Shown: positions 654 to 56,500, counted from the stretch's first letter. The stretch: DNA of 64,000 bases from Cyanidioschyzon merolae (GCA_000091205.1 AP006487.2); one strand, 5' to 3'. Notes: generated from the letters alone by a model not told the origin. Made by a program: numbers and translations.

Positions 654-688
<35 letters not shown>

Positions 689-7023: not shown

Positions 7024-7214
7024 AAGGGCACTCTATGGAGTACGCCTAAAATACCAACCTGTCGTTGCCGCAAGCTCCGGGTTTGTGGTTTCCCGCCACC
7101 AGTTCAACAACTCGCTGCAGCAGTTGCTGGTGGACGTGCTAGAGGCACTGACCACGCAGCGGGTCGATGACGTACAACGCGCGTGGTTTTCTGTTTTGGC
7201 AGAACGTTGATCTG

Positions 7215-8560
7215 GACCATGGATACTAGATCCTGGGATGGATATTGCTGTTCGGGAAAGCGTCCATTAGTCTTCACTCTACCTCCGAATTCCATGACCC
7301 ATACTTCCCCTCGGATGTACTGGTCGTTTCGTACGTTCCATTGTGCACCGAGCGCATGCGATGGGCGTCTACGCTAGCGAATGTACTGCTGGGGCGGATG
7401 CAGCACGGACAGAGAACGGCTTGGCCATGCCATTCAGGCCGTCCACTCGAGGCGCAGTGCCTAGGGCGCGGAGTAGGAACTCATCCTCAACCTGGGAGCC
7501 AGCAAGCTGCGCAGACAGACCTACTGCCCGTGACAGTGCGGAGCGATTTGCTCGGATGATCCGGCGACCGGTGGAATACCTGGATGTAGCCTAATCACGA
7601 CTAGTCCAGGAAGAAAGTGCCTCGCGGGCGAGTTGCTCAGGTCGCAACCCCTGTATCCGCCGCGGGAGGCAGCACGAAGCACTTGCCTGGCACACTCGTC
7701 CGGCTCGTGGGACGCTCCACCTGGAAGGTAAACTTGCAGGAATGTGGAAAATTTTGCCCCCTTTTACCGTTTCTCGTCCAGGGGAAAGAAACTGTTATCG
7801 AGTTGCTCGGTAGTGGGTATTTTCTGTCTTTCGGCACAGTTGCAACGAGTAAGCGGTTACTTTCTGGTCTTAGCACCTCGGATGCCTCGTCGAATCATTG
7901 AAGACCTGTCCTGGACGTCCGGCGATGTCCTCGTACTGGACAACATGGCGTTTCACCGTTGCCCTTAAGTTCGAGCAGCAGCTTCTTATTCCTCCTCCGT
8001 GCACTCGTTTGTTGAACCGTATTGAAGGAGTGTTATCTTTCGGGAAATATCATGATCGCCCGAGTAAGCGAATCGCTGAAACGTTCAGTACACGATGACA
8101 CTAAGGCACATGTCGTCTTTTTTCCGCAAGTCCTTCGTCCTCCGGTAAGGTCCTAACCCAAGCGCATAAACAAGTGCGATCATTCCCAATAATAAAGCAT
8201 CCAAGGGATAAGCCAGAACAGACACTCCAGAAAGTCGAAAATGAGAGAAGCCAGCGGAGCGCTCCGGCGATAGAAACCCACAGAGAGCTGACAGAGCAGT
8301 AAATGGCACAGAAGAAACCAGTCCGAGGAATCTCTGGTTTGGCGAGATCAACCAGAAGTAAAATACATATAGAGTTCGTGAACCGCGACTCCAACGCCGC
8401 CATCAATATCACGAGATGTGCATTCCGAAACGCGACACCTGTGAAGCTCACACGAGCGAACTTTGCGGGACACCCCCCTGAGGATCCAAATGAACACGGA
8501 TAAACTGAAACCGATAACCGTCAACCAGGCAAAAAACGACCGCGATGCATCCGCGCCCCC
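7215..8560 (+). mobile_element. Degraded, internally deleted copy (E1) of a Fanzor/TnpB-like element. Consists of the ~600-bp family-specific 5-prime repeat (repeat C, 7215-7800) plus the C-terminal RuvC-II/RuvC-III remnant.
   Basis: 7215-7800 aligns with 24690-25270 (for example tggtcgtttcgtacgttcc, gcaagctgcgcagacag, cccccttttac blocks). 8100-8503 encodes a remnant homologous to the C-terminus of the 27026-27706 ORF (KVRGLVAFV...RDFNAAVYI vs PVRGISGLA...RDSNAAINI). The 3-prime tail motif ctgaaaccgata... is shared with the other copies. Confidence 0.6.
8303..8503 (+). pseudogene. TnpB/Fanzor-like RuvC-III C-terminal fragment (part of E1)
   Basis: Translation ...IHIEFVNRDSNAAINITRCAFRNATPVKLTRANFAGHP matches the TnpB-family RuvC-III signature (RD-x-NAA-x-NI) and the equivalent region of the larger copies at 27480-27700 and 44843-45151. 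Confidence 0.6.
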
Positions 8561-8909
8561 CGAGTACCCATCTGTAGCCCGTCGACGTGAGACGCGCGCG
8601 ATCCGGACACGTCTCGTGAACGGATCGCGCGCGTGCATGCAGGTGCCGCTGCGCCACTCGCTCGCGGAACACCAACTGCTCCCTCGATCGGCGCTCGCGG
8701 GTGGAACGGCGCAGCGGCGCTGGGGCGCTCACCTGGCGGCCGTCGCACTCGACAGCACGCAGCGCTGCGATGCGTGCCGCATCCGGATCCGTGCGGCGGG
8801 TGAATTGCGCAGCGCGCTGTGTGTGCGCGTCGCCAAACGGCAAACGGGCAGGATCCTGTTTCTAGGAGTGCGGTATCGTCCATGCGCGTCGTGCTTTGAA
8901 AGCAGGCTC

Positions 8910-11687: not shown

Positions 11688-14600
11688 CGCCCACGCGATA
11701 AGTTGTTCTGCAAACTGAGCATCACAACCCAAGACGGAGGAGAATTCTAAACCGTACCGATTTCCGACGGGCTCTGCACGCAACGCAACGCAACGCATCA
11801 CGTCATGAGTATGCGGCATCGCCTCATACGTCGGACGCGTTGTGCACGACTTCCCGATCGATGTTCAAGTGGTATTCGCTGTCGCGAGTGCATTCGGCCA
11901 CTGCCGTGGGTACTCAGACCGATCGATATGCTTTTCTGCAAGCGTCGCTGCTACCGCAGCCATCCTGGCTAGTCGCTCACGAGACACCGCGACGGCATTA
12001 GCGAACGTCCGCAACGCCGGCGTCCAGTGTTCAGGGGTTGTATGCCAAGCGTGTGCCGGCACCAGCGGTATTCCCGAGATGACTGCTTATCGTAGCACTA
12101 TGCAGATCTATCGACTTGAGCGTGGTCAACTCCGCGTCTAGCGTACGCGCTCTTCCACGCACTGCACAAAACGCACCCAAGCATTTCATGCTCGTGAAGC
12201 AGCGCTTCCTATAGCATCAGGTGACGCTGGTGTATGTGAGCAGCCCTGCACGCTGCGCATGGCATGGCAAAGGCGCGTGGCACGCACACGGGACACGTAG
12301 GTTGTGATGCGTGTCTTTCGGCGACACGCACGCACGCACGCATCCGGCGATGCATGAATGATGAGCGTGCCTGCGCAATCGGCGTTAGACAGGCAATTGG
12401 GCGCAGCTCGTGTCGTGTACGGCATCATGGACGAGAGCGAGGTGTTTTCCCTGTATTGGGCGTGTTTACTATCAAGGTGAACGTTTATACACACAGAGGA
12501 GAATCGCTGGTTTGGTGCTGTAGGCGCCTATGCTATGGTTTGTGCTGCTGTTTGAAGCGCGCGGCTCGTTCGCAGCGCAGTTTCTCGGGGTTCGCGCAAC
12601 GGTGCACCCTGCGTCTAGGCGTTGACTAGAGCGTCGAGGTTCCTCAGCGCATCGCTTCGCGTCGTCGCGGCAATTCGTTCAGCCGCGCGACACGCTGGTT
12701 CCCAAGGACTGACAGCGAGTCGCGACCCCGCAAACGGTCGACGACGCCTCAAGTCGACGCTCGTGGCGTCACTGCAAAGCTTTCCTGACTCTGTGGGGTA
12801 ACCGCAGCGGCAGCGCACCTGACAGAGCAGCAAGCATTTTTGGGGTATGCTCCGCATCCAGAGGTTCGCTGGATCGATTCGGCCTAATTTGCTTCCAGAA
12901 ACACCACAAGGGGACCGGGCCACGCAGAAGCGTATCTGGAGCAATCAGGGCCTCTTCCCTGGTATTTCGTTCAGTTGGCGCTTGCGGGACCTCTGGTTAC
13001 AGAACATCACTCGTACATCGTTAGAATACTGCGTGCACCTCGGGGGCTCTGAGTAAGATTTCCCTGTTCTGCTTGAAAGAAATCAAAATCTTGCGCAGCA
13101 TCCTGGGGCCATTCGCTGTCGCCCCGCCCCGTGTCGCATGATGGATGCATTATCCACGATACTGGATCATGGTACATCGATATCGTTCGCCATTTGACCT
13201 GGAAAATCTTTCCTGGTGTATATTCACAGCGCTTCAGCGTCGCAGCGTTACTGGAACGTATCGTATGAGTGCCGTGTCCCCGGTGGATTCCAATGCCCTT
13301 TCGCATGACCATTGCATGTTTCTATCGCAAGTCTTCCGCATTTCAGCAAAACGACCAAACTCCGTGGGAAACGAATCGCCCGAAAGCTCGCTCCTTATCA
13401 AGCTGCTGGACGCTCCGGAAGCATGACACGATTCCATAGGCTGATAGAGACATTCCAGTCTCGGTGCGGAGAGCGCGTGGGTTCATGGTCGCTTGTAGAG
13501 TCACACCATGGCACGCTTGTCACCCTCGATTGCCTGGTCAACTGACGTTCGCTTATCTTACAGTGAACCGTCTCATGCAAGCGGCTTTGTTGCATTCCGT
13601 TTTTATATACCTGTTTCAGCGGTAACACATGCACCCGGTGCCTGTATGTCATCTCGAACGCCTCGTTGAGAAGCATCCAGGATCGATATCTCGATCTCTC
13701 GTTTCACGCTCGTGTCGAACGAGCACGAGTGCAGCCCCTAAGCGCTAAAGCACACCCAGCACCATAGGCTACGAGCATCGAGCAACGCTCCGTGTCTGTC
13801 ATTTGCTTCCCCAACACATTGAAGTTGGCGAATGAGCGCGCCTTGCTTGTATACGACAGAGATCATTGGCAATGCCTGCACAATCCCGGATCAACCTGCC
13901 AACTGTCGCCCGCACGAGCGATTTGGACGCTGATCCACGGTGAAAATGAAGCACAGAGTGCATCCGCCGCTTTTCGGTGCGGTGCTCAGAGCGTCGACAT
14001 GGGTCCTGACGCCGTCCCTCTACTGTTCGATATACCTCTCGACGCCTATCATGATCGACGCTTGCAATCACCTGGCCCCGGAAAAGTCGACCAGTGCCAT
14101 CTAATTTCCATTCAGGCAACTGGCTCATCCCCTTTTGCTAGAGAGGTGCGTCGACGGTCATGACGCCCATCAATCCGGGATCCACGTCCACCGCGAAGTC
14201 GTTCTCATTGTCGGCCTGGGACCGTAGAAAAACGAGTCTCATTGCTTGACGCAGGCCTCGATTTAACAAAGTGCATGGAGACAGATATTCCGTTGACCTC
14301 CAATGTCTGGGTAAACTTTATTCCATTCCATCTCTGTGAACACAGAACCATCGGCGAGAACCGCCACTGCTCTTCGAGAGGTCGTTCGAATGCTTCGAAG
14401 GTGCGCGCGAGTGCCACCCGTAGATCACTGACGTGGTCATATAGTACACACGTTCCAACTGTAATAGAATAGGCCATGATGTGACACGTGCAAACCACAA
14501 TGAATAGACGCTTGAGAAGGCCGGGGCGCTCTGATGCGGGCAGCGAGCCTTGTTTGCGCTGGACGGCGCCGTCCAGGAGCACGAAGAAACGCAAGATGCG

Positions 14601-16255
14601 AGGAAAGCAGCCATCACCTCCCAACACTGCGTCAGATACGATGTTCTTCGGTCCGAGGCAGAGAGAAACGACATGAGCTCGAGTGATTTCAAGCGGCGCT
14701 CGCTCTCGTTGCCATGCCTCTTCCGAGCTCGCTACCGTTTCGATCTCTTCCGGCAATTGGTCGTCATTTTGCCACCATCGACATCAGATGACTACCCTCC
14801 ATCAGTCCCAGATTTTCTGGTTCAGTAAGGTGAACCTACAACGCTCATGAGGAGTGCCTCACGAGGCGCTCGATATTGACCAGCGTATAATTTGATTTTT
14901 GCTTGATAAAATGTCGGTATCGGTGCTGTAGATACCCCGATCGCGGACGCGTCGAGGTATGCAGAGAAGCGTGTGTCTGCGAATCTCTGACCCTACGAGC
15001 AGGCCGTACTTCATCTTCTGTTCAGAGCATTATTTGCGTCTCGGCATGAGGGTTTGATCTATAGACCTATGTACGAGAGGAAAAGGGACAGCGGGAAGCC
15101 CTGCGTCTGGATAACGTATGAACAGCTGCATGACGATGTGTGAGAAGGCGAGAGAGGCTAAGCGCGACGTCGTCGAAAAGTCACATGATTCCTGATGCCG
15201 TTCTGCATTCAACGGTTCTCTGAATGCGAACGACTCATCTATGGATCCGTGAGCATAGAGAAAGCGTTTGAAAACATACAAGAATCGGCCGTCTGGATGG
15301 AACCAGGGATATTCAGCTGGCACAAAGAGCAGATCAACGCATGTATCTGCTGCGTACTACTTGATCGCTTACGAGCCAGGAAGAACGACGGTTTCTCTGA
15401 GCAGGACATAGGTGCGTGAGACGGAGGAGCATGAATTCCTCCGACGAAGGATGAGGTGTTGAACGATTCTTCCCGTTTGTCGATAGTTAGGCGAACACAT
15501 GATTGAATCGCTTCTAGAGCTGATCCTGTTGTCGTTTTCGCATGTCTTCTCGTTACGAACACCCGTCGCTCCTGTCGTAAGTGTTAGCGTTTCCGTATGG
15601 AAACGTTCGTTTGCTGTTCAACGCGCAGCGCTCTCGAATAGAGGCGTGCTTTTCTTCCACGCGCACTCGCGTCGCTGCATCAGAGGTCACTTCAGCGGTC
15701 CGAAACCCTCGTACCCGACGGTTTCTTTGGTAATATTCGTAGAGAAGATATGAACTGGAATGGGTTGAGATGGAACCCCGGGTATAGCTTTAGGTAGATA
15801 AGTTCTGTTTAGGGTGCACGCTGCCCAGGTGAACGACAACGACAAAGGGGGTTCATCCACCTGCCTTCCATACGATGACTGACTAGTAGCGCTAAGCTCG
15901 GTATTCGCTAGCTATCAGTGACAGCACACAGTCTCCCCGCAACAGATCCCCTATCTGCCGAATTCATTGCTTTTGCTGGAGAGCTGTGAGAAAAGCACAC
16001 GGAAATCAGTACGGTGCCGTGGTACCAGAATCGCAGACTGTACTATTCGTTCTAAATATGTACATCATAGACATAGCCCGTCGAACCGTTCTGATTTTCA
16101 AATCCCTCGGCGCGGGCGGCCACGAAACACGCCAGTGCGTTGAGGCGGCGATACAGCGCCTCTTCGCGCAGTCTCGCCTTTCCACGGGTGCCGGTGGTCT
16201 GTTCGCGAAAACCTTCAGTTTGCAGCCGATTTCTAAAATTTAGGCTTCTGAACGA

Positions 16256-23074: not shown

Positions 23075-24253
23075 ATGAGCAAACCAGCGGGTGGCTGTGG
23101 TGGCAGCGTCCCGGTGCCGGGCGATTGTCCCAAAAAGCTACTTTTTCTGGGTCCACGACAACTTGCAGTTGTTCCGGATGGGTCGCTGAGTCGCCCTCTG
23201 GAGCCAGACGAGGTTCGCGTCAGAGCGTTGTGCTCGGGCGTCAGCGCGGGCACGGAACTCTTGTTGTACAGGGGTCAGATTGTGGCGGACGATGCGCTGG
23301 ACGCGACCATAGCGGCGTACAAAGACCCAGATGCGGGACGGCGGGAGCATCGTAGCTTGTACCCAACGACGTTTGGCTACTGCCTCTGGGGAGAGGTGGT
23401 CGCTGTTGGGTCTGGGTTGGACCGCGAGCGCTGGGTCGGTAGCGTTGTTTTTCTCCTCGCTGGGCACGCCGAGGAGCACATTGTGAAAGCCAGTGACGTC
23501 CTTTTTTTCGCAGACGACTGGAACGGGGCCACTCGGGAGCTAGTGCTCGCTGTTCCCCAGCTGATTCCCGTCAGCGAGACGGTGACGTGCTGGCTACAGG
23601 ACGCTGCCCCGGTGCTCGGCGACCGGGTTGCAGTGGTCGGTGCTGGACTCTACGGCTCTGTGTTGGCGGTAGGCGGAGCTCTGCTTTTCCCACTGAGCAC
23701 ATGGCTCGTGGTGGAGCCAGATGCAAAACGACGGGCGCAGCTTGCTGTTGCGCTGAAAGAAGCGTCAGTCACACGTTGCCAAACGCTGGCACCCGACCAG
23801 GTTCAGGCGTACTTATCATCATCATCGTCATCAGAAACTCGCTTCGATATTGTGCTGGAGGTGTCTGGAACGACGGCGGGGCTCAATGTTGCGCTGGAAC
23901 TAGTCCGCGCCACGGGTCGAGTGATCATTGGCTCCTGGTATGGGCGCAAGGCACAGGAGGTACCGGTGGAGATGCTGGGCTCTACCCGCCTCCATCGAAG
24001 CCACGCCCAGATACTCTTCTCCCAGGTCAGTGAGATACCCCCGTGGCTCGCTGGTCGTTACGATAAGCGTCGACGATTGACAGTGGTGCAGGAATTTCTG
24101 ACGACCTTTTCCTCTGCGTTCAAGGCTATAGCTTGCACCGTTCGGAGCTTTGCGTTTGAGGAAGCACCTTACGTTTTTGGGCAGTTAGATAATGGGGCGC
24201 TATCGGACCCAGTTCGCTTCCTGTATGGGGATTCTTCAAGCGCTTTTTCCTAG
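23075..24253 (+). CDS. Medium-chain dehydrogenase/reductase (zinc-type alcohol dehydrogenase-like) superfamily protein
   Basis: ATG start. N-terminal GroES-like region (PLEPDEVRVRALCSGVSAGTELLLYRGQ). Rossmann GxGxxG motif (VAVVGAGLYGSVLAV) and the overall MDR layout. Confidence 0.55.
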   Translation: MSKPAGGCGGSVPVPGDCPKKLLFLGPRQLAVVPDGSLSRPLEPDEVRVRALCSGVSAGTELLLYRGQIVADDALDATIAAYKDPDAGRREHRSLYPTTFGYCLWGEVVAVGSGLDRERWVGSVVFLLAGHAEEHIVKASDVLFFADDWNGATRELVLAVPQLIPVSETVTCWLQDAAPVLGDRVAVVGAGLYGSVLAVGGALLFPLSTWLVVEPDAKRRAQLAVALKEASVTRCQTLAPDQVQAYLSSSSSSETRFDIVLEVSGTTAGLNVALELVRATGRVIIGSWYGRKAQEVPVEMLGSTRLHRSHAQILFSQVSEIPPWLAGRYDKRRRLTVVQEFLTTFSSAFKAIACTVRSFAFEEAPYVFGQLDNGALSDPVRFLYGDSSSAFS

Positions 24254-24689
24254 TGTCTGAGAGATTCTAATCTTTCTTTATGGTTCCGCACAGTCGCCAA
24301 TTCGCTTGCAGTATTTCGAATCGATACGCGTGGAGGTACTGAAAAGCAGTCGTATCTCAAAGCATCGTCCATATTTGGGTAACGCTGATACCTCTAAAGG
24401 TTCTAAAACCCGTGCTATCTCAAAACAAGGGACACGGCACGCCCGGCGCCTGTTCGTTCTTTGGACCCAATCAAGCATCGATACCAAAAGCAAGCCCTAT
24501 GTGGAGGCCACAAAAACGTAGAAGCATTTAGGTAGAAACTATAAACGCTCCCCTGGTATCTGGAACCCTTGCGGTATCCAGCGCGTCACATATGGCACGC
24601 TGTACGAATGCACGCCGCCCTGACCCTGCCATGCATCGACAGCAGCAGCGCGGGCGTGATTTTACTTCGATCACAAAATTCGTTTCCAG

Positions 24690-27600
24690 GGGCCATGGAT
24701 CCCAGATTGCGCGATGGGCAATGGCTCTGGGGAAAGTCTCCACGATGATGCATCCACGGCCAAGTTCCATTGCTTATACTTCCTTTCGGATGCACTGGTC
24801 GTTTCGTACGTTCTGTTGTGTGCCGAGTATCTGCCTTGATGCACCAGCAATAGCGCTTATATCCCTGGTAAGGATACAGCGCGAAGACAGAGCGGATTCT
24901 TCATACTACTGACGGCGTCGAATCGAGGAATGCTACATTTATTGACAGGGAGTCACGGCAAATTATCATTCTGGGAGTCTGCAAGCTGCGCAGACAGCAT
25001 TCTGCCTGTGGCAGCGCGAAGCGATATACTAGGAGTCCACTGCCACTAGTGCGACGTCCAGACGCAGCCTGATTGCCCCTAGTCCCAGAACAGACTGCGT
25101 TGCGGACGAGCTACGCAGATCTCTCTAAAGCACCAGCCAGTTTCGAGGCACACCGAGCACCAGCCCGGCAAACTCGTCCGGCGCGCTGCACTGTTCACCT
25201 AGAAGAAAAACTTTCGACAACATAGAATCCTTTTCCCCCTTTTAATGTTTATCACAGAGGGAGAGAAGGAATTGTAATCTCGTAAGTGGATCATAGTGAT
25301 TCTCTGTTCTTTGTTCTAAATAGTGCGGTTGATACTCGCATCTGGGAGATCTGGCCGTCACGAGGCACGACGCGCATCTCGCCGTTGAAGGGAAACACGT
25401 TTCTGATCAATACCGTGTTGCTCTAATGTACAAGTTATATTTGGGTTAAAATCATAGCGAATTATAGTCTTTCAATTCAATTCTATTTCAATTCTCAGGG
25501 GAGTGTATTCAAGTGATTTTTCGCGGTGTATATTAGAAGCTTTCAAAGAGTCTTCTTTTTCAAAAAATTAAAGAAGGAAAGATATAGAAAGGAAAGTAGA
25601 GGATCCCGGCGGGCCGTTTTCTCCGGCTGTCGGAAAGAAACGGAACGCAGTGCCAAGCAAAGAGGAACACGACAGGACGAAGAAGCGAAAGAAGGATGCC
25701 AGACGTCAAAAGCTGCGAGCAAGTCGACAGTACGACGAGATAGGAGCCAAAGCCCTTCTTCTACGCCGCAGCAAGGATCCCTAAAGCAAATAACGCATGA
25801 GGTCATCAAAAAAACGTGTCGCGTCTTACGCTATGAGTATTATAAAGGCTTCTTCAGGACTGATGCATTGTCGAAGATGTACGACAACGTGACGGAAATT
25901 CGAAGAGTCGAGGTTCCGGCAGAGTTTATCAACAGGACCTTTATTCGCCTCCTGATGGTTGGCACAGGGGAAACGCCGAGGAGAAATGAGCGAGAGCATG
26001 TCCTCCACGAAAATCACAAGGAATACCGCTTCAACGGTACTCGGCACAGGGACGGCGCGGATATCTACACATACGGTGTGAAAAGTACCTCACGAACCTG
26101 AAGAACCATTTCATAATGAGCCTCAAACGCTTCGTGATACGCGCCGTCTTTGCACTCTACCCGGGTATCTCTCGCAGAGGCAGACGGGCCAGCATCGATG
26201 GCATCACGAACGACAGCAGGAGTGAACGGGAGATCGAATTCGTCCACGAGGAGACTTCAAACCGGAGTATGAATGAAGCTTCCGTGGCCCGTGCGGCTAT
26301 GCAAGAGCACCGTGCGGTCTTAGGGCTTGTCAACCCAGCGGAAAAGATATCAGATATGAAAAAGGATGGAAAAGGTGCGATTCCCTCATCCTGCGTTATT
26401 TCGTGTCCCTGAACCGAGAGCGCGAACGCAAGGCCGATATGGCGCCGGCCCTAAAAAATCGAGAGTCGGACAAACGGAAGGCTTTCCTACGAGAGAGGCG
26501 CTTCAACGTTGTTCGGATTTGCGGGATCAAGTCGGATTTCGTGACCATCAACTCCAGCGTCCTCTACTGGATCATGAGGAAGATCAGTATAGAGTTCTGT
26601 GTAAGCAACAAGGAATTCATCGGCGAGAGCCGGGAAACGTATTGGAAGAATATCCTCGATCTGAAGCGTCTCAAAACGAGCATGCGAGGGGTATCCGCGG
26701 GGATCGTCGAAACCGATAGGGTATCCATAGGTGTTCACTGACGGCGCTTGAGGGCGGATCGCCCGGTTCCATCTTCGTTGTCACCCGTGACGGAGCATGA
26801 AGGAAAGAAGGAGGCGGATCCTGCGACGCCGGCGGTGCAGGAGAACGACCGTGTCGTTGGCACGGACCGCGGAAATACGAATACCATAATCATCGCAGTA
26901 CCCAAGCCTGGGGAAGATGGTATTGACGGCAACTTATGCGAGAAAGACACGCGACTTTTGGAGTTCGCGAGAGCGAGCTATGACCGAGAATCCGGTATAA
27001 TGAATGCCAGGAAGAAAATTGAGACATGGAATGCAGGAGTCAAGGAAGAGCTGGAAGCGATCAGCCAGGTGCCTATCCGCGGAGCGGACTTTCGAGATTT
27101 TCGGGAGCTCGTGAAAATTCGCGTTGCTCATTGCGAGGATCTGTGCAAGGGGTTTGCAAAGTACCGGCTTGGTGGGCTCGTCACCACACGAACTTGTACT
27201 GTGGGGAGCAGTGTCTATTCGCGAGCTTTTCCAACCAGCTGGGCGCCCTCAAGGAAGACGATAGTCAAAGGCTCGTAACAGCGTGTGAAGCAGAGCGCTG
27301 GGCGCCAAAACAAAAGGAGTGTACGCCCGCTCCGTCGCCACGAGCGTACAAGGAGTACGCACGGCGTTTTGTTACGATACATGTAGATGAGTTCCGAACT
27401 TCATACATACAATACGAGTTGGGGTGTCCGCTCCAGAGGGACGAGATGGAAAAGTGCCATCGACGCTCTGAGGATATAGAAAAGTACGGACCGCTGACGG
27501 AAGAGCGAATGGAAAGGAGGGCGAAAGTTCGAGGACTAGTCGCATTCGTAAGTAGAAACAGAGGCGAGAAAGGTGTGGAGTGTGCGAACCGAGACTTTAA

Positions 27601-27800
27601 TGCCGCTGTGTATATCAGGAGATGCGCAGTGCCGGAGAAGAGACCCGAGGAGTCGACGAGGGCCAACTTTGTGGGGCACCCCTATTCCCCCTCCGCCCCG
27701 AGGTGAAATTGCACGCGAATACGTTGAAACCAGCAGTAGGTGGCCAGTCAAGGAAAACGGGTAGGCGTCTGCACGCCGGTGCGTGGACATCCAGCCTACG
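24690..27800 (+). mobile_element. Most complete copy (E2) of the Fanzor/TnpB-like element: ~600-bp 5-prime repeat C, fragmented nuclease gene, and conserved 3-prime tail
   Basis: 24690-25270 matches 7215-7800. 25640-27665 is about 95% identical to the inverted copy at 47040-44975. The 3-prime tail (27690-27790, ...ttgaaaccagcagtaggtggccagtcaaggaaaacgg...) aligns with the tails of the other three copies. Confidence 0.65.
25526..27706 (+). pseudogene. Fanzor/TnpB-like RNA-guided-nuclease-family gene (RuvC-I, RuvC-II, degenerate zinc finger, RuvC-III). Either interrupted by several frame changes and one in-frame stop, or contains unannotated introns.
   Basis: Ordered ORF pieces in frames 2,1,0,0,2. 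Basic Lys/Arg/Ser-rich N-terminal segment (NLS-like). RuvC-I-like RVVGTDRGNTNTIIIAV (~26850). RuvC-II-like FVTIHVDEFRTSY (~27385). RuvC-III RDFNAAVYIRRCAVP (~27590). A frameshift near 27680 moves the conserved tail EVKLHANTLKPAVGG...RRLHAG into another frame (ORF 27622-27900). Confidence 0.6.
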
Positions 27801-27969
27801 GCCGGGCGGCGCGCTGCCCGCCACCACTGCACACCAGAAGCGCAGCGTTTGCCGCCTGGAAGAGAGTCGTTGCTGCCGGTGTTCCTCTAGTCGAGTTTAA
27901 GAGTTTGGACCGGTCGTTCCTGTAAATCTCGATGAGATTGGGATTTTAAACGGGTGGTCATCACCGCTT

Positions 27970-29220
27970 ATGAGTGCCTTCTTCGCCAAAGTTCGGGGGG
28001 CGTTCCAGAACGTAACTTCGTTTGCGGCGGACGCCAGCTACGACGAGGAGCTCAATCGCCTCATTCAGCGCTGCAAGCAGTACAAGGATGTGAACGATAT
28101 GATTATCAAGCAGGCCAAGCTATATGACACGTCGCTGCGGGACCTTTCATCCGTGGGACGTGCAGCCGGAGAAACGTACATGTCCATAGCTAGCTTTCGA
28201 AGCTTCCCTGGCGGCGCTGTCGCGGGAGAGTCAGACTTGCGGCTGGCGCAGGCGCAAGGTTCGTTTCGAACCAGGAGTATAAGCTCGCTTAGCACGGCGG
28301 ATGCCAGTGACCGGAGCACAGGAGCGGGATCCTTCTATCTGTACCGGAGCGACGAACGTCGCGTGCTAGCGCAGCTCGGCCGAGCAGAGCGCGCTGCGCA
28401 CCAGGCACAGGCTGTGTTCGCAGAACGTATTTCGGCCCCGATTATCCTCGAGGGCCGTCAGTTTAAAGAGCGGTACGATGAGTTGCGACGGCTCAAGTCG
28501 CTCTACAAACGATGTAAGCGAAGGTACATTCAGGCACAAAGAGCTCTGGCATCGGAGAAAGCGAAGCGGGTTCCTTCTATGGAAGCACAGGTGAAGCTCG
28601 TGGCCAAGCTTGCGGAGCACGAGGAAGAGTTCAAACGCGTGACAGAGAAACTGTTCGTTCACGCAAAGGCACTCGAAGATGAACATCACTATTCGGTCAT
28701 GCAACATGTTTGCGGCTTTCTATTGCACCATTACAACGCACTCGTTATCTCCTTGCGCGCTATCAAGAACGTGATCGCCATCGCAGAGAAACACATTCCG
28801 GAGAAAATTCAGCTTGAGAGGCTGGAAAGCCTTGCCATCGAATTACACAAACTCTTGCCGTCAGCGGAAGCATTTGAACACGCTGGATTGGGAGGGACGG
28901 ACGCCGTACCTAGTTTGCCGGATAGTTCCCAGAGTTCGTCTGCTGGACGTGAGGATGAGTCGGAGCTTCGTCTGCGAATACAGCGCTCGGAAGAACTACT
29001 CAGCGTGGCGAATGCCGAGTCTCAGCGGTGGAAGATGCTTTATCTCCAAGCAGAGCGAAAGAATCGCGCACTTTACCTCGAGAATCACCGTCTTAAGAAT
29101 ATGATGCATGGAGTTGATTGCTCCTCTATCCGAGACGACCGACAGTCCACTTCTTCGTTCATGTTCGATGATCAGCGGTTGATGACTGAGGCGCAGGCCC
29201 GGCGAGGTCATATCACCTAG
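27970..29220 (+). CDS. Coiled-coil protein, possibly BAR-domain-like; function unknown
   Basis: 416-aa ORF with ATG start. N-terminal MSAFFAKVRGAFQNVT...DEELNRLIQRCKQYKDVNDMIIKQAKLYDTSLRDL resembles the N-terminal helices of BAR/amphiphysin-type proteins. Long heptad-like segments follow. No firm family assignment. Confidence 0.35.
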   Translation: MSAFFAKVRGAFQNVTSFAADASYDEELNRLIQRCKQYKDVNDMIIKQAKLYDTSLRDLSSVGRAAGETYMSIASFRSFPGGAVAGESDLRLAQAQGSFRTRSISSLSTADASDRSTGAGSFYLYRSDERRVLAQLGRAERAAHQAQAVFAERISAPIILEGRQFKERYDELRRLKSLYKRCKRRYIQAQRALASEKAKRVPSMEAQVKLVAKLAEHEEEFKRVTEKLFVHAKALEDEHHYSVMQHVCGFLLHHYNALVISLRAIKNVIAIAEKHIPEKIQLERLESLAIELHKLLPSAEAFEHAGLGGTDAVPSLPDSSQSSSAGREDESELRLRIQRSEELLSVANAESQRWKMLYLQAERKNRALYLENHRLKNMMHGVDCSSIRDDRQSTSSFMFDDQRLMTEAQARRGHIT

Positions 29221-32042: not shown

Positions 32043-35000
32043 TACCGAATCACGGAACACCATTATCGTACCCCAACTGCACATGAAAAGCCTTCCCTGT
32101 GTATGTGAAGCGCACGAATCATGCTGGATTGCTGCCGCGTGTCACACTAGTGCCATATCTCTTGGAAACGGATTCTTTCCATCGACATTCTTCAACGTTT
32201 CAGCACAACGCATGCACTGAGAACTAAACGATGCCCTCGCATGTTTGCCAGAAACAAAACTGCTAGAGGCTTCTGGTGCACGAGACATTTCCGGATTTCG
32301 ACCGAGGCGCTCGACTCTCGGTGCGGGAGTGCTTGTGTGCATTGTTGCGGGTGGAATCACGAAATCGTTGGCCGCTCACCTTTGACTGCGCCGCCATCGT
32401 ACGAGCGGTCATCTTAATCTGCACCATCTCGTGCATCCGGCTCTGCTTCATACTCTTCGTCTCTGCCAGTTTCAACGCGCACCAGTGCTCGTGATGCATC
32501 TATGTCGTCCTGAACGCATCGATCGGAGTCGAACACGACCGATGCCTGGTCTCGTTGTACGATCTCGTCGAGTGAGCAGGAATGTCGCGATTGCGCGCTG
32601 TGGAACGTCTAGCGCCACAGAGCACCAAAGAAACGACACGACTTGCAGTCATTTCATATTCCAGCTCATAAAAATGAATCGGGGAATGCACGTTTCTTGC
32701 GTTCGCTGGACGGCAACCGCTGGCGGCCCCAGCGCGAGTCATTCGAAGACTCACGTGCTCGCCAAGCGCACAAAGCATTCCGCTTTGCTCACTATGGTGA
32801 CCAGAGCAACGATACTGGTTTTGACGCGGTCATCCCAGTTGTTCGTATGCTTCCTGAGGTGCATCATGCCTGGCGCCGGGTCCAACCTAGCTTTCGAAAA
32901 GTTGAACGGATGCGTTCGCTTTCCGTTCGCGTTCTTCGACTGCGTCCTCTTGATTTAACGGGACGGCGACGGCCACGAAGCCCTTGAAACCGTGATAAAC
33001 GTTTATGACGACTTTTTTCTCTTTATATACCTTGAACGGCTGAAAATGAGTCTCGTTACCCGACACAGGCTTGGGTTTCAAAACAAAAGCTGGTTGATAT
33101 TCTCCATCGTCCTTCATCAGCTCTATGAGCCTCTGTCCATTCCGTCCCTGTAAACGGGGAATCTTCAGCAATATCCGCCAGTGCTCGTCGCAAACTTTTG
33201 CCCATGCTTTGTACTTGCTCACGAAGGACAACTCTTTCTTCTTCTCCTCTACTTGACCTGTTGGCATGCATGTGGTCACTATGCTCTATACCAGTCTTTT
33301 CTTCCAAGGGATCTAGACGCGCGAGGTGGATACCATGACAGGAACTCGCCCAACTTATTTATGTAAGAGTCGACTACACTTCAAGTACCTTTGGGCACCG
33401 TCTCCTCCGTGAGCAAGCCCATGTAAAGGAGCCGTCGCTCTGCTCCATCCAGCGGACGAGCAGAGAAGCAACAGTCATCCGGGGCTGGTTTGAGTTCGAG
33501 AACGACTGGTTGGAGAACAGATTCACATATACGAGACAAGCAACTAGTGATTCTTATGTGTGGAAGTGACTTATGGAAACGGAGACGACGCCTTCGACAG
33601 ACTGAACCATTCGAACGGGTTGGTAAGCAGAGCAACTCAACGCCGATTTCAACCGCGTGTTCCTCGACTGCTTCTGAGTGACGGATAGCGGCTCTGTCCA
33701 AGAGCAGGAGAAGGGAATTGCCGAACGAGATGCTCCAAGCATTGCGTCTCACGAAGCATGGGGTTTCAATGACCCTGTCCGTTTTACGAGCCGTTGGCGA
33801 CTCTACAAATGAATACCTATACGCGTTACGAATCTCGGAATGCTCGATTGTCTCTTCTCTATGACCAGTGATTTGCCCTTCTTGGAGATGCCATATACAC
33901 GTCCACTATTCTTCCTGAATAGGGTCTCACCGAATGAGACGAATACCCGCCTCTCGTGTAGTGAGCGTTCGTATTCCAGTGCGAGATCGATCGGGTGTGT
34001 GTTGTGAGGCACGCGACGGTCTCGCCTAGAAGTGTGCGTTCCTCTTTGTTCGTCCGTGTTTCTTCGTCACCGTTCGTATCAGCAGTATGGAAAGTTCATG
34101 TTGCGTGGGTTGTTTGATAGCCTTTCATGGACGACATAGAGGGTGGAAAAGATTGACGGGGCTAGGTTCGAGCTGATAGCGTTTGATCGACTTTGGTCTG
34201 GACGCACAACGTTCCGAATATTGTCTACGAGACGGGTGATTCGTCCACTTGCTGACCGTTGAATGACTGACTCAAAGTATGGTCGTTCTTCGCAGACTAA
34301 AATTCACAGCATCAAATCTTTCCGTGATGTTTCTCCAACCCACAAAACGCAATATGTTTGAGTACCTATGGAGCAAACAACCAAAAGGCAAAACAGTGCG
34401 TGCTGGTGCATGTGTGCCGAAAAATTCACTGCTCAGCCTGATACTGCGCTCTCGGCCAGGCACACGGACTGCAGCGCTCGATGACTCCGGCCTTTGGAAG
34501 ACGATGCGTATCACATGCAGACGACGCTGAGCATTTCGCGAACTGCTGCCCGCATGGGTCCTTTTCTAGTGGAACAGTTCATTTTCGAGCATGGCGAATA
34601 TAGCAGTTTTCTCTCTGAAAAAGTATCATGGCTTTTATGTCTATGATACAGCGGAACTGACCGACATCTGCGTCGCGGCTTAAATAAAACTGATTCAACG
34701 CTACTGTTGTTCCTGAAAAAGGCAACGCTACACCTACCTGCATTTTTTGTTTTCTTAGCGCCCGTGCGCGCCTGTATCCTCCATCTGAGCAACTGAGGCG
34801 GCGACCCTGTCCCGCGCGCGCAGGACTCGCCCGGTCTTACTCTAGAGCAGTTGCGCTTTCCAGTGCTACCACAAAAGCAGCACAACGGAGCGAAGGACAG
34901 CTGGCCGCTCTTCATTCTCTTATGCTACAACTCCTTCGTCCTCTCGATCGATTCGGATGCCGTGAGTCGGAAAATCAATTTGCAAATTCGTTGCCCGAGG

Positions 35001-41114: not shown

Positions 41115-42300
41115 CAGATTAACATGGAACACTGAACTGCATGATCTGTGGCTGCATTTCGATTTTTTACGAAGCTTTTTAAGATGTCTAGCCTCGATAT
41201 CCGGAGTGCAGTGATGCGGGCTCACGGTTCCATGCATAGATTCAGGATTCTCGGTAGTGTTTTCGGAGTGACTCCCTCCGCTCTTTGAAGCTGGAATTCG
41301 GTACTTTATCGGAATTAAGATGATTCGTGACGCCATCGATCAGCGGTTCATAGAATAACAGATGCCAATATCGAGTCTATACGTACGAGCGTCCACGCTT
41401 CCCCTTTCGTTACGTGTAGCGTGCCCAGGTCACGCATGCTTCAAGTCTTCGATCGCTCGGTTTCACGGCAACTCATGGGCGCAGCGATCCGTGCCGTTCA
41501 ACAGACGATGTGGAAGATTCGCCTTAGTCAGTTGACGACCTGTTCAGAAGCTCATGCCGGGAGTTCCCTGGACTTTTCGCACCAAATGATGAAAGGACTG
41601 TTCGGAAAACGAATCCTATGCTCTCTGTGGATATCCACGCAGAGGCATCCCATTGCAGCACGATACCTCCCGCATGATACGCTCCATGCGGCTCCACAGT
41701 CTTCCGTCTACATCGGAAGGGGTCTTGGAGTCGGGCTCGAGCCATTGCTGCGATCGTTTCGAATAGTGCATATGTCACCGGAGTGCACTAGCGGAGCGTT
41801 GAAGGATAGAAACTTCTCGTCCTCTTCTCTGTCCTGGATTCTCCTAGTGGTACTTGTTTCATCATGGTCGACATCGCGTTCCACAAAGACTCGATCGAAC
41901 GTGACGCAGAGCGCTTTCGAGTGCAGCGTCCAGACTGCTCGCTGAGGGCATCGACCCAAAGAAACCCGTGATCATCGGATACGACACGAGGCGCAGAAAC
42001 AAAGCATGGCATCAAGGCGAGCCACCTGTACCCGGACTGGGCATGTACCGAGCGTTACAGCAAGTGCTCAAGCGCCGCAGTAAAGTCCCCATAGGAGGAG
42101 TCTGGGTATTATTTCGTAACACTTGACCGCAGCCAAGTGTTACCGGCGCGAAGGGCTCGCCGCAGCTGTGGAGAAGTAAGATGAGCATGGCAAGCGAACC
42201 GTTGATCGCCCTTGCATCTTTGCACGGAATACGTCGATGACAGCCTGAGGCAGTGAAATCGGGACTCAGACGCCGCCACCAACAGTGCTCAACTCCAAAC
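41115..42300. repeat. Repeat family B, copy B1 (~1.2 kb). It is one arm of an inverted pair with 51080-52268.
   Basis: Near-identical to the reverse complement of 51080-52268 (174-aa ORF identical except 2 residues; 98/112-aa ORFs identical for the first ~70 residues). Boundaries found where the two alignments break down (~41115 vs ~52268; ~42300 vs ~51080). Confidence 0.7.
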
Positions 42301-44799: not shown

Positions 44800-47250
44800 T
44801 GCCTATGATTTTTCCAGTTCAGTGGAAAAGAATATCCCAAGATCATATACGGTAAATTAGTCCGCACCCGCATACTCTTACCCGCCTTTCTCGACCTGAC
44901 CCTTCAATCGGTTTCAGGTGCTCGCTGTATACTTCGATTTTGAGAGGTTGCCAAACGATGATGGCTCGTGTCAGCTGCTCGGGTCTCTTCTCCGGCACTG
45001 CGCATCTCCTGATATACATAGCGGCATTAAAGTCTCGGTTCGCACACTCCACACCTTTCTCGCCTCTGTTTCTACTTACGAATGCGACTAGTCCTCGAAC
45101 TTTCGCCCTCCTTTCCATTCGCTCTTCCGTCAGCGGTCCGTACTTTTCCATATCCTCAGAGCGTCAATGGCACTTTTCCATCTCGTCCCTCTGGAGCGGA
45201 CACCCCAACTCGTATTGTATGCATGAAGTTCGGAACTTATCTACATGTATCGTAACAAAACGCCGTGCGTACTCCTTGTACGCTCGTGGCGACGGAGCGG
45301 GCGTACACTCCTTTTGTTTTGGCGCCCAGCGCTCTGCTTCACACGCTGTTACGAGCCTTTGACTATCGTCTTCCTTGAGGGCGCCCAACTGGTTGGAAAA
45401 GCTCGCGAATAGACACTGCTCCCCACAGTACAAGTTCGTGTGGTGACGAGCCCACCAAGCCGGTACTTTGGAAACCCCTTGCACAGATCCTCGTAATGAG
45501 CAACGCGAATTTTCACGAGCTCCCGAAAATCTCGAAAGTCCGCTCCGCGGATACGCACCTGGCTGATCGCTTCCAGCTCTTCCTTGACTCCTGCATTCCA
45601 TGTCTCAATTTTCTTCCTGGCATTCATTATACCGGATTCTCGGTCATAGCTCGCTCTCGCGAACTCCAAAAGTCGCGTGTCTTTCTCGCATAAGTTGCCG
45701 TCAATACCATCTTCCCCAGGCTTGGGTACTGCGATGATTATGGTATTCGTATTTCCGCGGTCCGTGCCAACGACACGGTCGTTCTCCTGCACCGCCGGCG
45801 TCGCAGGATCCGCCTTCTTCTTTCCTTCATGCTCCGTCACGGGTGACAACGAAGATGGAACCGGGCGATCCGTCCTCAGGCGCCGTCAGTGAACACCTAT
45901 GGATACCCTATCGGTTTCGACGATCCCCGCGGATACCCCTCGCATGCTCGTTTTGAGACGCTTCAGATCGAGGATATTCTTCCAATACGTTTCCCGGCTC
46001 TCGCCGATGAATTCCTTGTTGCTTACACAGAACTCTAGACTGATCTTCCTCATGATCCAGTAGAGGACGCTGGAGTTGATGGTCACGAAATCCGACTTGA
46101 TCCCGCAAATCCAAACAACGTTGAAGCGCTTCTCTCGTAGGAAAGCCTTCCGTTTGTCCGACTCTCGATTTTTTAGGGCCGGCGCCATATCGGCCTTGCG
46201 TTCGCGCTCTCGGTTCAGGAACACGAAATAACGCAGGATGAGGGAATCGCACCTTTTCCATCCTTTTTCATATCTGATATCTTTTCCGCTGGGTTGACAA
46301 GCCCTAAGACCGCACGGTGCTCTTGCATAGCCGCACGGGCCACGGAAGCTTCATTCATACTCCGGTTTGAAGTCTCCTCGTGGACGAATTCGATCTCCCG
46401 TTCACTCCTGCTGTCGTTCGTGATGCCATCGATGCTGGCCCGTCTGCCTCTGCGAGAGATACCCGGGTAGAGTGCAAAGACGGCGCGTATCATGAAGCGT
46501 TTGAGGCTCATTATGAAATGGTTCTTCAGGTTCGTGAGGTACTTTTCACCCCGTATGTGTAGATATCCGCGCCGTCCCTGTGCCGAGTACCGTTGAAGCG
46601 GTATTCCTTGTGATTTTCGTGGAGGACATGCACTCGCTCATTTCTCCTCGGCGTTTCCCCTGTGCCAACCATCAGGAGGCGAATAAAGGTCCTGTTGATA
46701 AACTCTGCCGGAACCTCGACTCTTCGAATTTCCGTCACGTTGTCGTACATCTTCGACAATGCATCAGTCCTGAAGAAGCCTTTATAATACTCATAGCGTA
46801 AGACGCGACACGTTTTTTTTTGATGACCTCATGCGTTATTTGCTTTAGGGATCCTTGCTGCGGCGTAGAAGAAGGGCTTTGGCTCCTATCTCGTCGTACT
46901 GTCGACTTGCTCGCAGCTTTTGACGTCTGGCATCCTTCTTTCGCTTCTTCGTCCTGTCGTGTTCCTCTTTGCTTGGCACTGCGTTCCGTTTTTCGTCGGA
47001 AACCGCGACACCAGGCCCTCAGCATCATCGACTTGCAGCCCCATATCTTTCCTTTAGATTTTTCTTTCTTCACAATCAACGCACTTCGAACGTGCCTGCT
47101 GTAAACCACGATAAAGAATTTGATTACAACCATCTGCGCGTAGAACACGGTTGACTTGGAAAACTATCAGGTTCCGGGTAGTCGCTTCGCGCACGGCAGT
47201 GGCAAACGCTCGTCTGCGATTTGCGAGCTCTGCAGACTCGTTTTGACATG
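44800..47250 (-). mobile_element. Inverted copy (E3) of the Fanzor/TnpB-like element. About 95% identical to E2 over ~2 kb, with more disablements and a truncated 5-prime repeat C remnant.
   Basis: ORF series 46735-47148, 46215-46511, 45886-46224, 45349-45849, 45164-45601, 44843-45151 (all minus) mirrors the E2 ORF series. Extra lesions: CGA->TGA stop at ~45168, homopolymer A7->A9 frameshift at ~46807. 47160-47250 aligns (reverse complement) with the repeat C segment tcgcttcgcgc...gtctgcgcagcttgcagactc. The C-terminal tail QPLKIEVYSEHLKPIEG is intact here. Confidence 0.65.
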
Positions 47251-49055: not shown

Positions 49056-49208
49056 GGGGTAAAAGTGTACGCAGAGTGAACCACACTGTGTCACCCTGTT
49101 TGCAGCCCTCTGACAAGAAGCTGCTTCTCGCTCTAGGCCTCTATGATTCGCAAACCCGCGTACCACATCAGTTCACATCGATTGAGGCGCTGCAGGGCAT
49201 CGAATGGA

Positions 49209-54783: not shown

Positions 54784-56205
54784 CTTTTCGAAAGGCACAA
54801 ATTATCTTCCTCCCCGAGGTGCAGCCGCACCGTCCATCACCAGGACGTACACACTCTCACCAGTGAACTCGGATTGAATGGTCCAGAGGATTGGCGGCGG
54901 ATGGCGGCCGCCGCACGGCTACTTCGCCGCGGCAGTCCGCCGCCGCACATGCTTGGAGTCGCTCGCGCGCCATGGCCGAATCGCATTCAGCTGAACTCTG
55001 TTCCTCTCCTTTTTAGAGAAGGAAATTGAAATCGATATGCAATGCATCCTATGGATCGGAGACGAATTGCCCCTAGGATGTATGTTTCACCGAATAGTGC
55101 AGGGATGATTGTATTTCTCTTTCAGGGCAATCATAATATAATTATCAGGTAGTTAAGGAACACTGGAAGAAAGAAAAAGATGCGCTGCCCGCCAAAAACC
55201 GATATTCTCAAACCGTGTTTGTGGGCAATGGTAGAAAAGGACCCGTTGAGCACTTTACGGAAAGCAAAGAGCGACGATAGTTGCCACCACGGGCGTCTCT
55301 GTTTCCCAACAGCTTGTTCGCTTGGTCCTGAAACCCCTAGGATACAGTCGCGAAAAAAGAGTCCTGGTTCACGCACGGCCATCTTCCATCTAAATCGCAA
55401 TAACAGCGTTCCTGAAACTCGGGGATCGGTATGCAGTACAGAGACGTTGATTTGTATTTTCAGTCGATGAGACTTGCCTCGGACCAAACGTTGGTACATA
55501 TTTGAGTATTCGCGGAGAGGGAGCCCGTTGTATGTACGATCGCTCTCGACGAGAACGAGGGCATCATCTATTCTAGCTGCGGTGGATTCATTTGGCGGCC
55601 GCCGTTTTGCTGGCACAGAGGGCTCGCACAACAGGACCAACCACTTTGTCCAACCATTGAAGACTCTTCCCTGCCGTCTGGCGACGTTCCCCTATCGGAA
55701 ATCGTGGGGTATAACCATTCCCCTGGGGTTCGAGTTTTCGAAGAATCTTTCGGGGTAGAGCTGTTTTTCATTCCTCCACACGCTCCAGGGTTGAAGCCCA
55801 TCTATGGAGTGTTTTCTATCGTGAAACGTTATGATCGCCTCACCGAGCGCATCGCTGCAGCTTTCTGTACACGGTGATACAGCGGCACATTCCGTCCTTC
55901 TTCTGCAAGTGCCTCTCACTCCGGAAAGATCCTCATCTAAGCGAATAAAGGAGAACGTTCATTTGATGAAATAAAAAATCCGAGGGAAAGGTACGGTCAT
56001 ATAAGTCAAGGATCCTGGAGGTACATGTCGTCGGCTGACAAAAGAAAATGAAAAATCCTCTTCTCGCCGACCATCGAGCGAAGAAGAAGAGGGGAGATAG
56101 ACCAGGAAAGGTGTTTGCCCTGCGGGACAAAAACTAGACTGTAGGGTCACTGACGGCACGAGTTCTAGGACTCCCTGAACAGCTAAATCCCATCAAAAGC
56201 AACAA

Positions 56206-56500
56206 ATGCATATCGTTCTTGAACGGAGACTTCAACGACGCCATCAATATCAGACGATGTGCAGTGCTGAATACGAGGCCTGCGGAGCTGACTCGACCGA
56301 ATGTTCTGGGGCAACCTCTCAGGCTCGAAGTCTACAGAGAGAAGCTGAAGCCGATGGCAGGGCGCCTTTCGGGAAAGGCTGTGAGGCGTCTGCGAGTGGG
56401 TTACATAAATAGAAATATATGCTCTATAGTAGCGAACGGTTTTCCGTTTTGCTCTATATATAGGTTCGATTTGAAACACATTCTCAGCAGGGCGTAGCCT
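56206..56500 (+). pseudogene. Fourth, short fragment (E4) of the Fanzor/TnpB-like gene: RuvC-III plus conserved C-terminal tail
   Basis: ...GDFNDAINIRRCAVLNTRPAELTRPNVLGQPLRLEVYREKLKPMAGRLSGKAVRRLRVGYINRN aligns with the E3 tail (QPLKIEVYSEHLKPIEGSGRERRVRVCGCGLIYRI) and with the frame-shifted E2 tail. No upstream RuvC-I/II sequence is present. Confidence 0.55.

Follow-up and report, generated by a model that had tools for sequence, protein, structure and literature searches.

The DNA analysed here (the window) is a 64-kb stretch (64,000 nucleotides) of nuclear DNA from chromosome 5 of Cyanidioschyzon merolae 10D (GCA_000091205.1, AP006487.2), and two of its open reading frames (ORFs), 27970-29220 and 23075-24253, are identical to CME033C and a neighbouring gene of this strain. 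C. merolae is an intron-poor red alga, and we have therefore read frame changes inside genes as decay and not as introns. The window contains at least six pieces derived from genes for Fanzor, an RNA-guided nuclease of eukaryotes. A first-pass annotation, made from the sequence alone, had reported four of them (E1 to E4) and had proposed that the 3' tail of E2, at 27660-27800, belongs to a conserved region that gives rise to the guide RNA (ωRNA). All four are real, although the count was incomplete, as two more decayed Fanzor remnants are present (Table 1). Judged by sequence, E2 is a remnant of the published Fanzor1 transposon CMe-1A, and E1, E3 and E4 are remnants of diverged relatives. The proposal for the tail stands in part: intact copies of CMe-1A probably fold there, in a structure that ends at the right end of the element, but within the window E2 alone matches this structure, and does so as a relic.

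CMe-1A has been described as a Fanzor1 element of C. merolae with ca. 150 copies, each about 80% identical to a consensus of 3169 bp, without terminal inverted repeats (TIRs), with target-site duplications that could not be determined and of unknown transposable element class; its 5' 635 bp are another repeat, TE-N2_CMe (Bao & Jurka 2013, PMC3627910). We took the consensus from Additional file 2 of that paper and mapped it to the window by blastn. Its ORF runs from 906 to 3110 (734 aa) and 59 nt follow the stop codon. Only E2 follows the 3169-bp consensus along its whole length, both ends included, with 79.8% identity to positions 1-3087 over 3122 nt (window 24668-27775). None of E1 to E4 has kept an intact ORF that could be a functional gene at its locus; E2 and E3, which each need at least five frame changes to be read (tblastn), are pseudogenes, and E1 and E4 retain the last 70-90 residues only. 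The block flagged in E2, at 27724-27761, corresponds to consensus ~3037-3075 and lies within the ORF (…LEAVVGGRSKKTGRRL…). That the protein tail of E2 is frameshifted, as had been noted, is borne out by tblastn, in which frame 2 is followed to 27682 and frame 1 from 27667. The right end of E2 is most likely at 27869 in the MAFFT alignment with family copies (possible range 27850-27871); an alignment to the covariance model halts at 27850, with the terminal hairpin deleted. The tail is also the worst-kept part of E2, with 57.6% identity to the consensus over 27682-27871 versus 80.7% in the 5' part and 80.4% in the body.

Table 1. Fanzor-derived pieces of the window and the anatomy of E2. Positions are those of the window; consensus positions are those of CMe-1A.
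Feature	Position	Strand	Remarks
TE-N2_CMe copy adjoining E1	7197..7831	+	blastn to CMe-1A consensus 4-636, 76% identity
E1, transposase-like remnant (homologous to the DDE_3 remnant of E4), then Fanzor C-terminal remnant	7889..8516	+	
Older Fanzor1 remnant	13407..14768	-	tblastn, 26-46% aa identity to CMe-1 consensus; stop codons, heavy decay
E2, full-length frameshifted CMe-1A copy	24668..27869	+	consensus 1-3087 by blastn, on to ~3169 by alignment
RuvC-III motif of E2, NRDFNAAVYIRR	27587..27622	+	catalytic Asp codon 27593-27595; translation of ORF 27026-27706; columns invariant among relatives
Right edge of the E2/E3 98.4%-identical block (consensus 3007)	27681..27682	.	E2 and E3 tails diverge onward
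E2 C-terminal coding-tail remnant (consensus ~3008-3110)	27682..27799	+	frameshifted, with insertions; contains block 27724-27761
E2 helix H1, 5' strand, GCAGTAGGTGGC	27733..27744	+	in the minimum free energy structure of E2; equals family helix consensus 3041-3050 / 3124-3133
Degenerate H3 equivalent (GTAGGC...GCCTAC)	27762..27799	+	spans the ancestral stop codon position; family H3 is consensus 3075-3083 / 3096-3104
E2 helix H1, 3' strand, GCCACCACTGC	27820..27830	+	former 3' untranslated region
E2 degraded terminal hairpin region and right end	27840..27871	+	MAFFT with family copies; covariance-model alignment
Flank where a copy-specific guide would sit if the RNA is an ωRNA	27870..27889	+	placed from position only
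Older Fanzor1 remnant	32371..32628	-	26-46% aa identity to CMe-1 consensus; stop codons, heavy decay
E3, 5'-truncated frameshifted Fanzor copy (consensus 787-3025)	44865..47167	-	window 47167-44928 by blastn; no family 3' untranslated region
E4, DDE_3 (Tc1/mariner-like) transposase remnant, then short Fanzor remnant (consensus 888-969, 2890-3084)	55648..56398	+	

Relatives of the encoded protein were gathered by a homologue search and by an exhaustive search with a profile, the latter giving 3700 cluster representatives at E≤0.001. A family profile of 50 sequences, CMe-1-type proteins among them, matches the solved Fanzor1 structures of Parasitella parasitica (PpFz1, 9cf0, E 7e-24), Spizellomyces punctatus (SpuFz1, 8gkh, 2e-18) and Guillardia theta (GtFz1, 9cer, 6e-14); the CMe-1 consensus protein alone gave nothing useful against Pfam and PDB, and neither did a profile of five sequences. 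The RuvC motifs are found in the order D … E … RD (GxDPG, DEFRT[ST], NRDxNAA) in the consensus protein and are invariant among relatives; E2 and E3 retain GTDRGNTN, VDEFRTS / VDKFRTS and NRDFNAA, E1 has NRDSNAA and E4 NGDFNDA. As to the zinc ribbon (TNB) expected between RuvC-II and RuvC-III, Pfam Cas12f1-like_TNB matches 16 of the 50 relatives (best E 5.6e-5) and the CMe-1 consensus only at E=0.51. By these matches the elements in the window are of the Fanzor1/TnpB type. In the profile alignment the solved Fanzor1 proteins end ca. 15 residues past RuvC-III, and the red-algal relatives (31-43% identity) stop shortly past a conserved GQPL, 20-25 residues before the CMe-1 end. The last ca. 25 residues of CMe-1, which contain the flagged block, are in this comparison a lineage-specific extension. 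Just upstream of RuvC-I, a unit of 73-79 bp (consensus 2117-2195, ca. 25 aa, rich in KHEE…QEVQDND) is present as two to four in-frame tandem repeats in otherwise intact environmental copies (L102 3721-3874, L103 3540-3618, L104 3426-3651).

The proposal that prompted this work rested on an alignable block of ca. 100 bp said to be kept by all four tails. The four strings quoted for it are indeed present, within ca. 5 nt of where they had been placed (8505-8538, 27724-27761, the reverse complement of 44882-44918, and 56344-56379). We have measured the similarity only on the sequence downstream of the RuvC-III block or of the E2-E3 breakpoint, against 500 shuffles. It is strong between E2 and the CMe-1A consensus (z=18.6) and between E3 and E4 (z=14.3), and lower for E4 and E3 against the consensus (z=7.0 and 5.3) and for E1 against E4 (z=4.2) and E3 (z=3.5), the last two over only ca. 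40 nt, essentially CTGAAACCGAT. No significant similarity was found between E1 and E2, between E2 and E3, or between E1 and the consensus, and no block of ca. 100 bp is common to all four. Along similar lines, the similarity was said to end 60-150 bp further on, which agrees with E2, where it reaches ~27869-27871, but not with E1, E3 and E4, where it ends ~0-25 nt from the block (at ~8516-8540, 44865 and 56398). In these three the resemblance to the family stops at consensus ~3095, and an untranslated region (UTR) can no longer be recognised. What the four share is what is left of a single protein tail, whose frame is shifted in E1 and E2, and the strings of E1, E3 and E4 are, from their sequence, this same tail (…GQPL..EVY..LKP…) in older, diverged and truncated relatives. 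The resemblance within the window is thus due to shared descent and former protein constraint.

Much more could be learned from intact copies outside the window. A scan of metagenome contigs with an alignment of the C-terminal protein gave 471 stretches encoding relatives, of which the best 80 were used; their identity to the consensus tail is 82-93%, and almost all of them reach to within its last few residues. After removing loci with the same flanks, 40 independent copies were left, which come from a few JGI metagenome datasets. We take them to be from hot-spring Cyanidioschyzon because one of the datasets (Ga0078972) also contains the E3 and CME033C loci. Column conservation over the 40 copies is 0.84-0.95 in the coding tail and 0.70-0.90 in the 59-nt UTR, and falls to ~0.4 just past consensus 3169. 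Mapping the right end over many copies had been suggested as a check, and this sharp drop fixes it, by direct observation, at consensus 3169 (window ~27869), coincident with the end of the published CMe-1A consensus. About one quarter of the copies have no stop codon at the consensus position, and the downstream sequence is still kept in them. The first 4-9 nt past the right end are T/G-rich (TTTGG, KTGRTGGTG) and beyond them the flanks are unrelated between copies. Because of this bias the boundary between scaffold and guide is not exact, and the T/G-rich start could either reflect a preferred target site or still belong to the element, which would then be a few bases longer. The motifs at the start of the flanks in L005-L084 (e.g., L057 1704-1712) are TTTGG, TTGTTGGTG and GTGGTGGTG.

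In these copies we predict a structured segment of ca. 130 nt on the sense strand, at consensus ~3041-3169, made of the last ~70 coding nt and the 59-nt UTR. Its helices were found by averaging the per-copy pairing probabilities over the 40 copies. A long-range helix pairs consensus 3041-3062 with 3111-3133, the part within the flagged block being its 5' strand, and comprises H1 (3042-3049 with 3126-3133) and its extension H2 (~3051-3061 with 3111-3122). Inside it is a hairpin across the stop codon, H3 (3075-3083 with 3096-3104), and a terminal hairpin follows that ends at the right end, at ~3169. Consensus 3042-3050 (CAGTAGTGG, in the flagged block) is exactly complementary to 3124-3132 in the UTR (CCACTACTG). 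A local hairpin after the stop codon, GGCG(N7)CGCC, was also considered and set aside; in most subfamilies it is better read as the 3' strand of the long-range helix.

Both this complementarity and the folding signal are direct observations. The folding z of the 3' window has a mean of -2.25, with 47% of the copies below -2, compared to -1.0 to +0.5 for five upstream coding windows of the same length and -1.2 for the antisense strand. In the MAFFT alignment 79.2% of the cells are paired versus 38-60% with slid partners, a comparison biased in favour of the structure as the helices were derived from the same sequences, and none of 500 shuffles was as high; double-sided changes occur at 15 pairs, a number reached by 12 of 500 shuffles, and these counts are not probabilities since the copies are related. 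In the alignment fitted to a covariance model, a procedure that leans towards structure, there were 60 cells with double changes versus 24.8±3.9 expected, and compensatory changes in nine of the ten terminal-hairpin pairs. Some of these changes can be seen directly, as at pair 3046/3128, where A-U is replaced by C-G in L070 and L071 and by U-A in L007. The best duplex partner of the UTR strand, in a search space of 977 nt, is consensus 3036-3051 in 18 of the 40 copies, and G·U cells outnumber A·C cells by 409 to 88. We consider that the thermodynamic support, from models of folding, is specific to this segment and that the covariation support is moderate. The CMe-1A family probably has a conserved 3' structure.

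The interpretation that we prefer, with a probability of roughly 0.6, is that this segment of ~130 nt is the ωRNA scaffold of the CMe-1 Fanzor nuclease. Published Fanzor1 ωRNAs sit at the 3' end of the element, and that of GtFz1 overlaps the last 17 codons (PMC10432273); RNA adjoining the right end is co-purified with other Fanzors. Consensus ~3041-3169 has just this position: it takes in the 3' end of the nuclease gene and stops where the transposon does, at its right end. The scaffold, folded from the last ~70 coding nt together with the 59-nt UTR, would either be part of the Fanzor transcript, at its 3' end, or be released from there by cleavage, and the adjoining copy-specific flank would serve as the guide. 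The RNA itself, its binding by the nuclease and guided cleavage are what we infer from this arrangement.

Several results, besides the two reservations already attached to the slid partners and the shuffles, weigh against this interpretation. The fold of E2 itself is no better than that of its shuffles (z -0.2 to -0.8), and the synonymous sites of the tail are not significantly more conserved than elsewhere. The G·U:A·C ratio of 4.65 is only moderately above that of the slid controls (0.7-6.3), because the strand is G-rich. RNAalifold gave only -4.77 kcal/mol and no covariation on the plain MAFFT alignment. The pairing registers of the inner helix and the terminal hairpin differ between subfamilies, and in 22 of the 40 copies the UTR strand has an equal or better partner elsewhere.

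The synonymous sites bear directly on the claim that the tail is conserved as DNA beyond what the protein needs, for which the first-pass annotation itself had named free synonymous sites as the refuting outcome. Third-codon-position diversity is 0.215 in the last 24 codons versus 0.252 upstream (p=0.21), i.e., third positions are about as free in the tail as upstream, and the conservation argument fails by that standard. On the other hand, the diversity of positions 1+2 is raised to 0.172 in the tail versus 0.114 upstream (p=0.0012), so that the extreme tail is weakly constrained as protein, which speaks for the ωRNA interpretation, as do the earlier ends of the solved Fanzor1 proteins and of the red-algal relatives. 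The codon periodicity of the variation is visible to ~consensus 3065 and is lost only in the last 14 codons. The free synonymous sites and the persisting periodicity would sit well with the most serious of the alternatives, namely that nothing but protein coding and shared ancestry is at work, the tail being a weakly constrained extension that folds incidentally, on account of its G+C-rich and repeat-like GTAGTGGGTGG / CCACTACTG. The block lies within the consensus ORF, GQPL is kept as protein in the relatives at 31-43% identity, the tail is the least conserved part of E2 in the window and drifts neutrally, and partners slid by three columns still pair in 49-62% because of the 3-nt periodicity. 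We nevertheless regard this alternative as unlikely, as it leaves without explanation a folding z that sets the 3' window apart, several pairs with compensatory changes, nine of the ten in the terminal hairpin among them, and the fact that half of the structure lies in 59 untranslated nt that can be aligned up to a sharp boundary, and that are kept even in the roughly one quarter of the copies that have lost the consensus stop codon.

Another alternative, which we find doubtful, is that the 3' end acts as DNA, the terminal hairpin and perhaps other inverted repeats being a right-end signal recognised by a mobilising enzyme. The subterminal hairpins of IS200/IS605 and the 3' hairpin of Helitrons would be comparable cases. 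The hairpin of CMe-1A does abut the right end, its pairing is kept while its sequence varies, folding is a little better than in shuffles on the antisense strand too (z -1.2), and hairpins are found as well 30-90 nt past the tails of E1, E3 and E4. The lack of TIRs, the target-site duplications that could not be determined and the unknown class of the element (PMC3627910) would also leave room for such a signal. However, many of the consensus pairs are G·U, which is weak in DNA, the sense strand folds clearly better than the antisense, one would more typically expect a long-range helix with internal loops in RNA, and no HUH/Y1 or RepHel gene was seen beside the copies in a search that was not exhaustive. 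Moreover, a role as DNA signal is compatible with one as ωRNA; in TnpB systems the same transposon end serves both as a DNA signal and as the source of the guide RNA. Finally, an mRNA 3'-end element without guide function, acting on the stability or 3' processing of the Fanzor message or in the control of its translation, would agree with a sense-strand structure that spans the stop codon and ends in a hairpin followed by a U/G-rich stretch, but is very improbable given that the structure ends exactly at the element end, that the ωRNA sits here in all characterised Fanzor1 loci and that such an element has no known precedent in Fanzor genes.

In the window, the ωRNA interpretation applies at most to the ancestor of what is now seen. 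With the structure model (R1) E2 alone is matched, at 65 bits (E 7.6e-13) versus 95-154 bits for intact copies, and E1, E3 and E4 gave no match. Rfam 15 offered no match to this region that reached the gathering score in the window, and nothing at E≤1 between 27500 and 28000. The insertion of E2 is old and fixed; every related strain that was examined has it upstream of its CME033C orthologue. Identity between strains is 97.4% in the E2 tail, 97.1% in the dead body of the element, 98-99% in the flanking spacer and 99.3% in the host gene. The tail thus changes as fast as the dead body, and 27660-27800 is a drifting relic and not a maintained RNA gene. The whole system at this locus is a relic, with the nuclease ORF broken, the terminal hairpin degraded and the tail drifting. 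For the window itself this is of little import; the block belongs to a catalogued transposon, and adds no new feature to the annotation.

For the family, comparison with known systems is more rewarding. The ωRNA (or reRNA) of bacterial TnpB in IS200/IS605 elements such as ISDra2 has a scaffold made from the 3' end of the nuclease ORF and the right end, and the flank as guide. These elements are paired with a TnpA transposase, unlike CMe-1A, in which no TnpA-like gene was seen. GtFz1 resembles CMe-1A in being a Fanzor1 with a homologous protein, and its ωRNA, as proposed for CMe-1A, takes in C-terminal codons (17 aa) and extends as far as the right end (PMC10432273). It differs in that the overlap proposed for CMe-1A is longer (~70 nt, 23 codons), and that in CMe-1A the coding part and the UTR close a helix, there are no TIRs and the structure is a predicted one. 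SpuFz1, also a homologous nuclease, has like the CMe-1A proposal a scaffold at the 3' end and a variable guide, of 14-15 nt, from the flank (PMC10432273). Its scaffold of 75 nt lies wholly past the stop codon and includes the 3' inverted repeat, whereas CMe-1A has 59 nt past the stop codon and no inverted repeat. The paper describing CMe-1A, of which E2 is a copy, predates the discovery of ωRNA and describes no 3' RNA or structure (PMC3627910), and in our search of the literature no paper linking Fanzor ωRNA with Cyanidioschyzon was found. The element, the protein and the position of the ωRNA in Fanzor systems were therefore already known; new are the 3' structure model of CMe-1A and the way it overlaps the ORF, the confirmation of the right end, and the large number of intact environmental copies.

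What the family gains is a concrete model, open to test, for the ωRNA that the Fanzor1 of C. merolae would use, with its boundaries, helices and right end, together with evidence for a scaffold that would overlap ca. 23 codons of the nuclease and for the persistence of many intact copies in hot-spring populations. C. merolae is a genetically tractable thermo-acidophile, and a working Fanzor/ωRNA pair from it would be a compact nuclease active at ~40-45 °C and of practical interest. One could go further and imagine CMe-1A as a Fanzor-only element that keeps ca. 150 copies without a transposase of its own, its ωRNA formed where the coding tail pairs with a UTR of very small size, and the T/G-rich start of the flanks (TTTGG / GGTGGTG) being the result of guide- or motif-directed homing. 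This is a long shot, but a homing CMe-1A would spread differently from its TIR-bounded mariner-Fanzor relatives. Since intact copies number in the hundreds in thermo-acidophilic Cyanidioschyzon populations, such an element would also offer, from nature, a eukaryotic RNA-guided nuclease that tolerates heat and whose compact guide is embedded in part in the ORF.

The other copies of the window have histories of their own. The tail of E3 is E4-like and in frame, with a stop at 44843. Self-comparison of the window aligned E2 25638-27681 with E3 46991-44946, on the opposite strand, over 2046 bp at 98.4% identity, and this identity breaks off sharply at 27681/44946, upstream of the flagged tail. The inverted block has sharp edges at consensus 960 and 3007, and the adjoining parts are only ~57-70% alike. 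Its sequence has the look of gene conversion, the two copies being old pseudogenes that lie 17 kb from each other. The ORFs of the E2 tail and the E3 tail in another strain (P0035 and P0028) have identical private substitutions, which suggests ongoing concerted evolution of the pair. An inversion between E2 and E3 in other strains was rejected, being a coincidence of two gene calls of 392 aa on contigs that represent the E3 locus.

E1 and E4 are not CMe-1A proper, but remnants of a relative associated with a Tc1/mariner-like transposase. The Fanzor part of E1 is consensus 2751-3007 (window 8222-8475), with a recognisable tail of only ca. 40 nt; the break at 8476 is confirmed, in line with the first-pass annotation, which had its protein tail as replaced. 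Directly upstream of the Fanzor remnants are degenerate DDE_3 remnants, at 7744-8208 (E1) and 55648-55987 (E4). The DDE_3 match in the window is weak (E 9e-4, below the Pfam cut-off), and Pfam gave no other match on ORF fragments of the copies. The same position is occupied by DDE_3 genes in Tc1/mariner elements with Fanzor1, i.e., the PUl-1 type (PMC3627910) and our relatives L092-L094. A DDE transposase gene, TIRs and a TA target duplication are all found in L092-L094, but not in E1 and E4; no TIRs turned up when the surroundings of E1, E3 and E4 were searched. Among these relatives at 31-43% identity a DDE_3 gene is followed by the Fanzor gene, the former apparently complete in L094 (412-1599, 395 aa) and a 137-aa fragment in L093 (871-1284); TIRs of 28-41 bp ending in TA are present, and are seen in L092 as well. 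This order is probably the ancestral arrangement. The 3' regions of these relatives gave no match to the CMe-1A structure model, and the model found no solo copies in the fetched loci. The hairpins mentioned above are at 8592-8634 (E1), 56425-56462 (E4) and 44803-44822 on the minus strand (E3), 30-90 nt past the loss of similarity. Those of the three copies are mutually dissimilar in sequence, that of E1 having arms of 20 nt that are 90% complementary, and they could be remnants of terminal hairpins or parts of neighbouring genes.

The left end of the element is also variable. Several copies start at consensus ~786-787 or ~648 instead of 1 (window 47167 and 35923, and L102 2175); overall the starts are at consensus 1-6, ~648 or ~787, with only two left-end flanks within the window. 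The starts at ~648 and ~787 suggest that TE-N2_CMe and a shorter Fanzor unit have been joined in the published CMe-1A consensus.

The window contains a second large inverted repeat, 41116-42283 / 51104-52271, with 1168 nt and 99% complementarity, as well as related pieces of 78 nt at 21938, 41837, 51473 and 60889, and ORFs of exactly 174 aa at 35958, 41421, 51442 and 62391, three of which were compared to Pfam and gave no match. The 1168-nt repeat and the 174-aa ORFs may be another repeat family. There is also a tRNA gene at 50681-50751 on the minus strand (Rfam RF00005, 66.5 bits) and, at 48072-49166 on the same strand, an ORF with a thylakoid-formation protein (Thf1) domain (E 1.7e-45), expected in a photosynthetic host.

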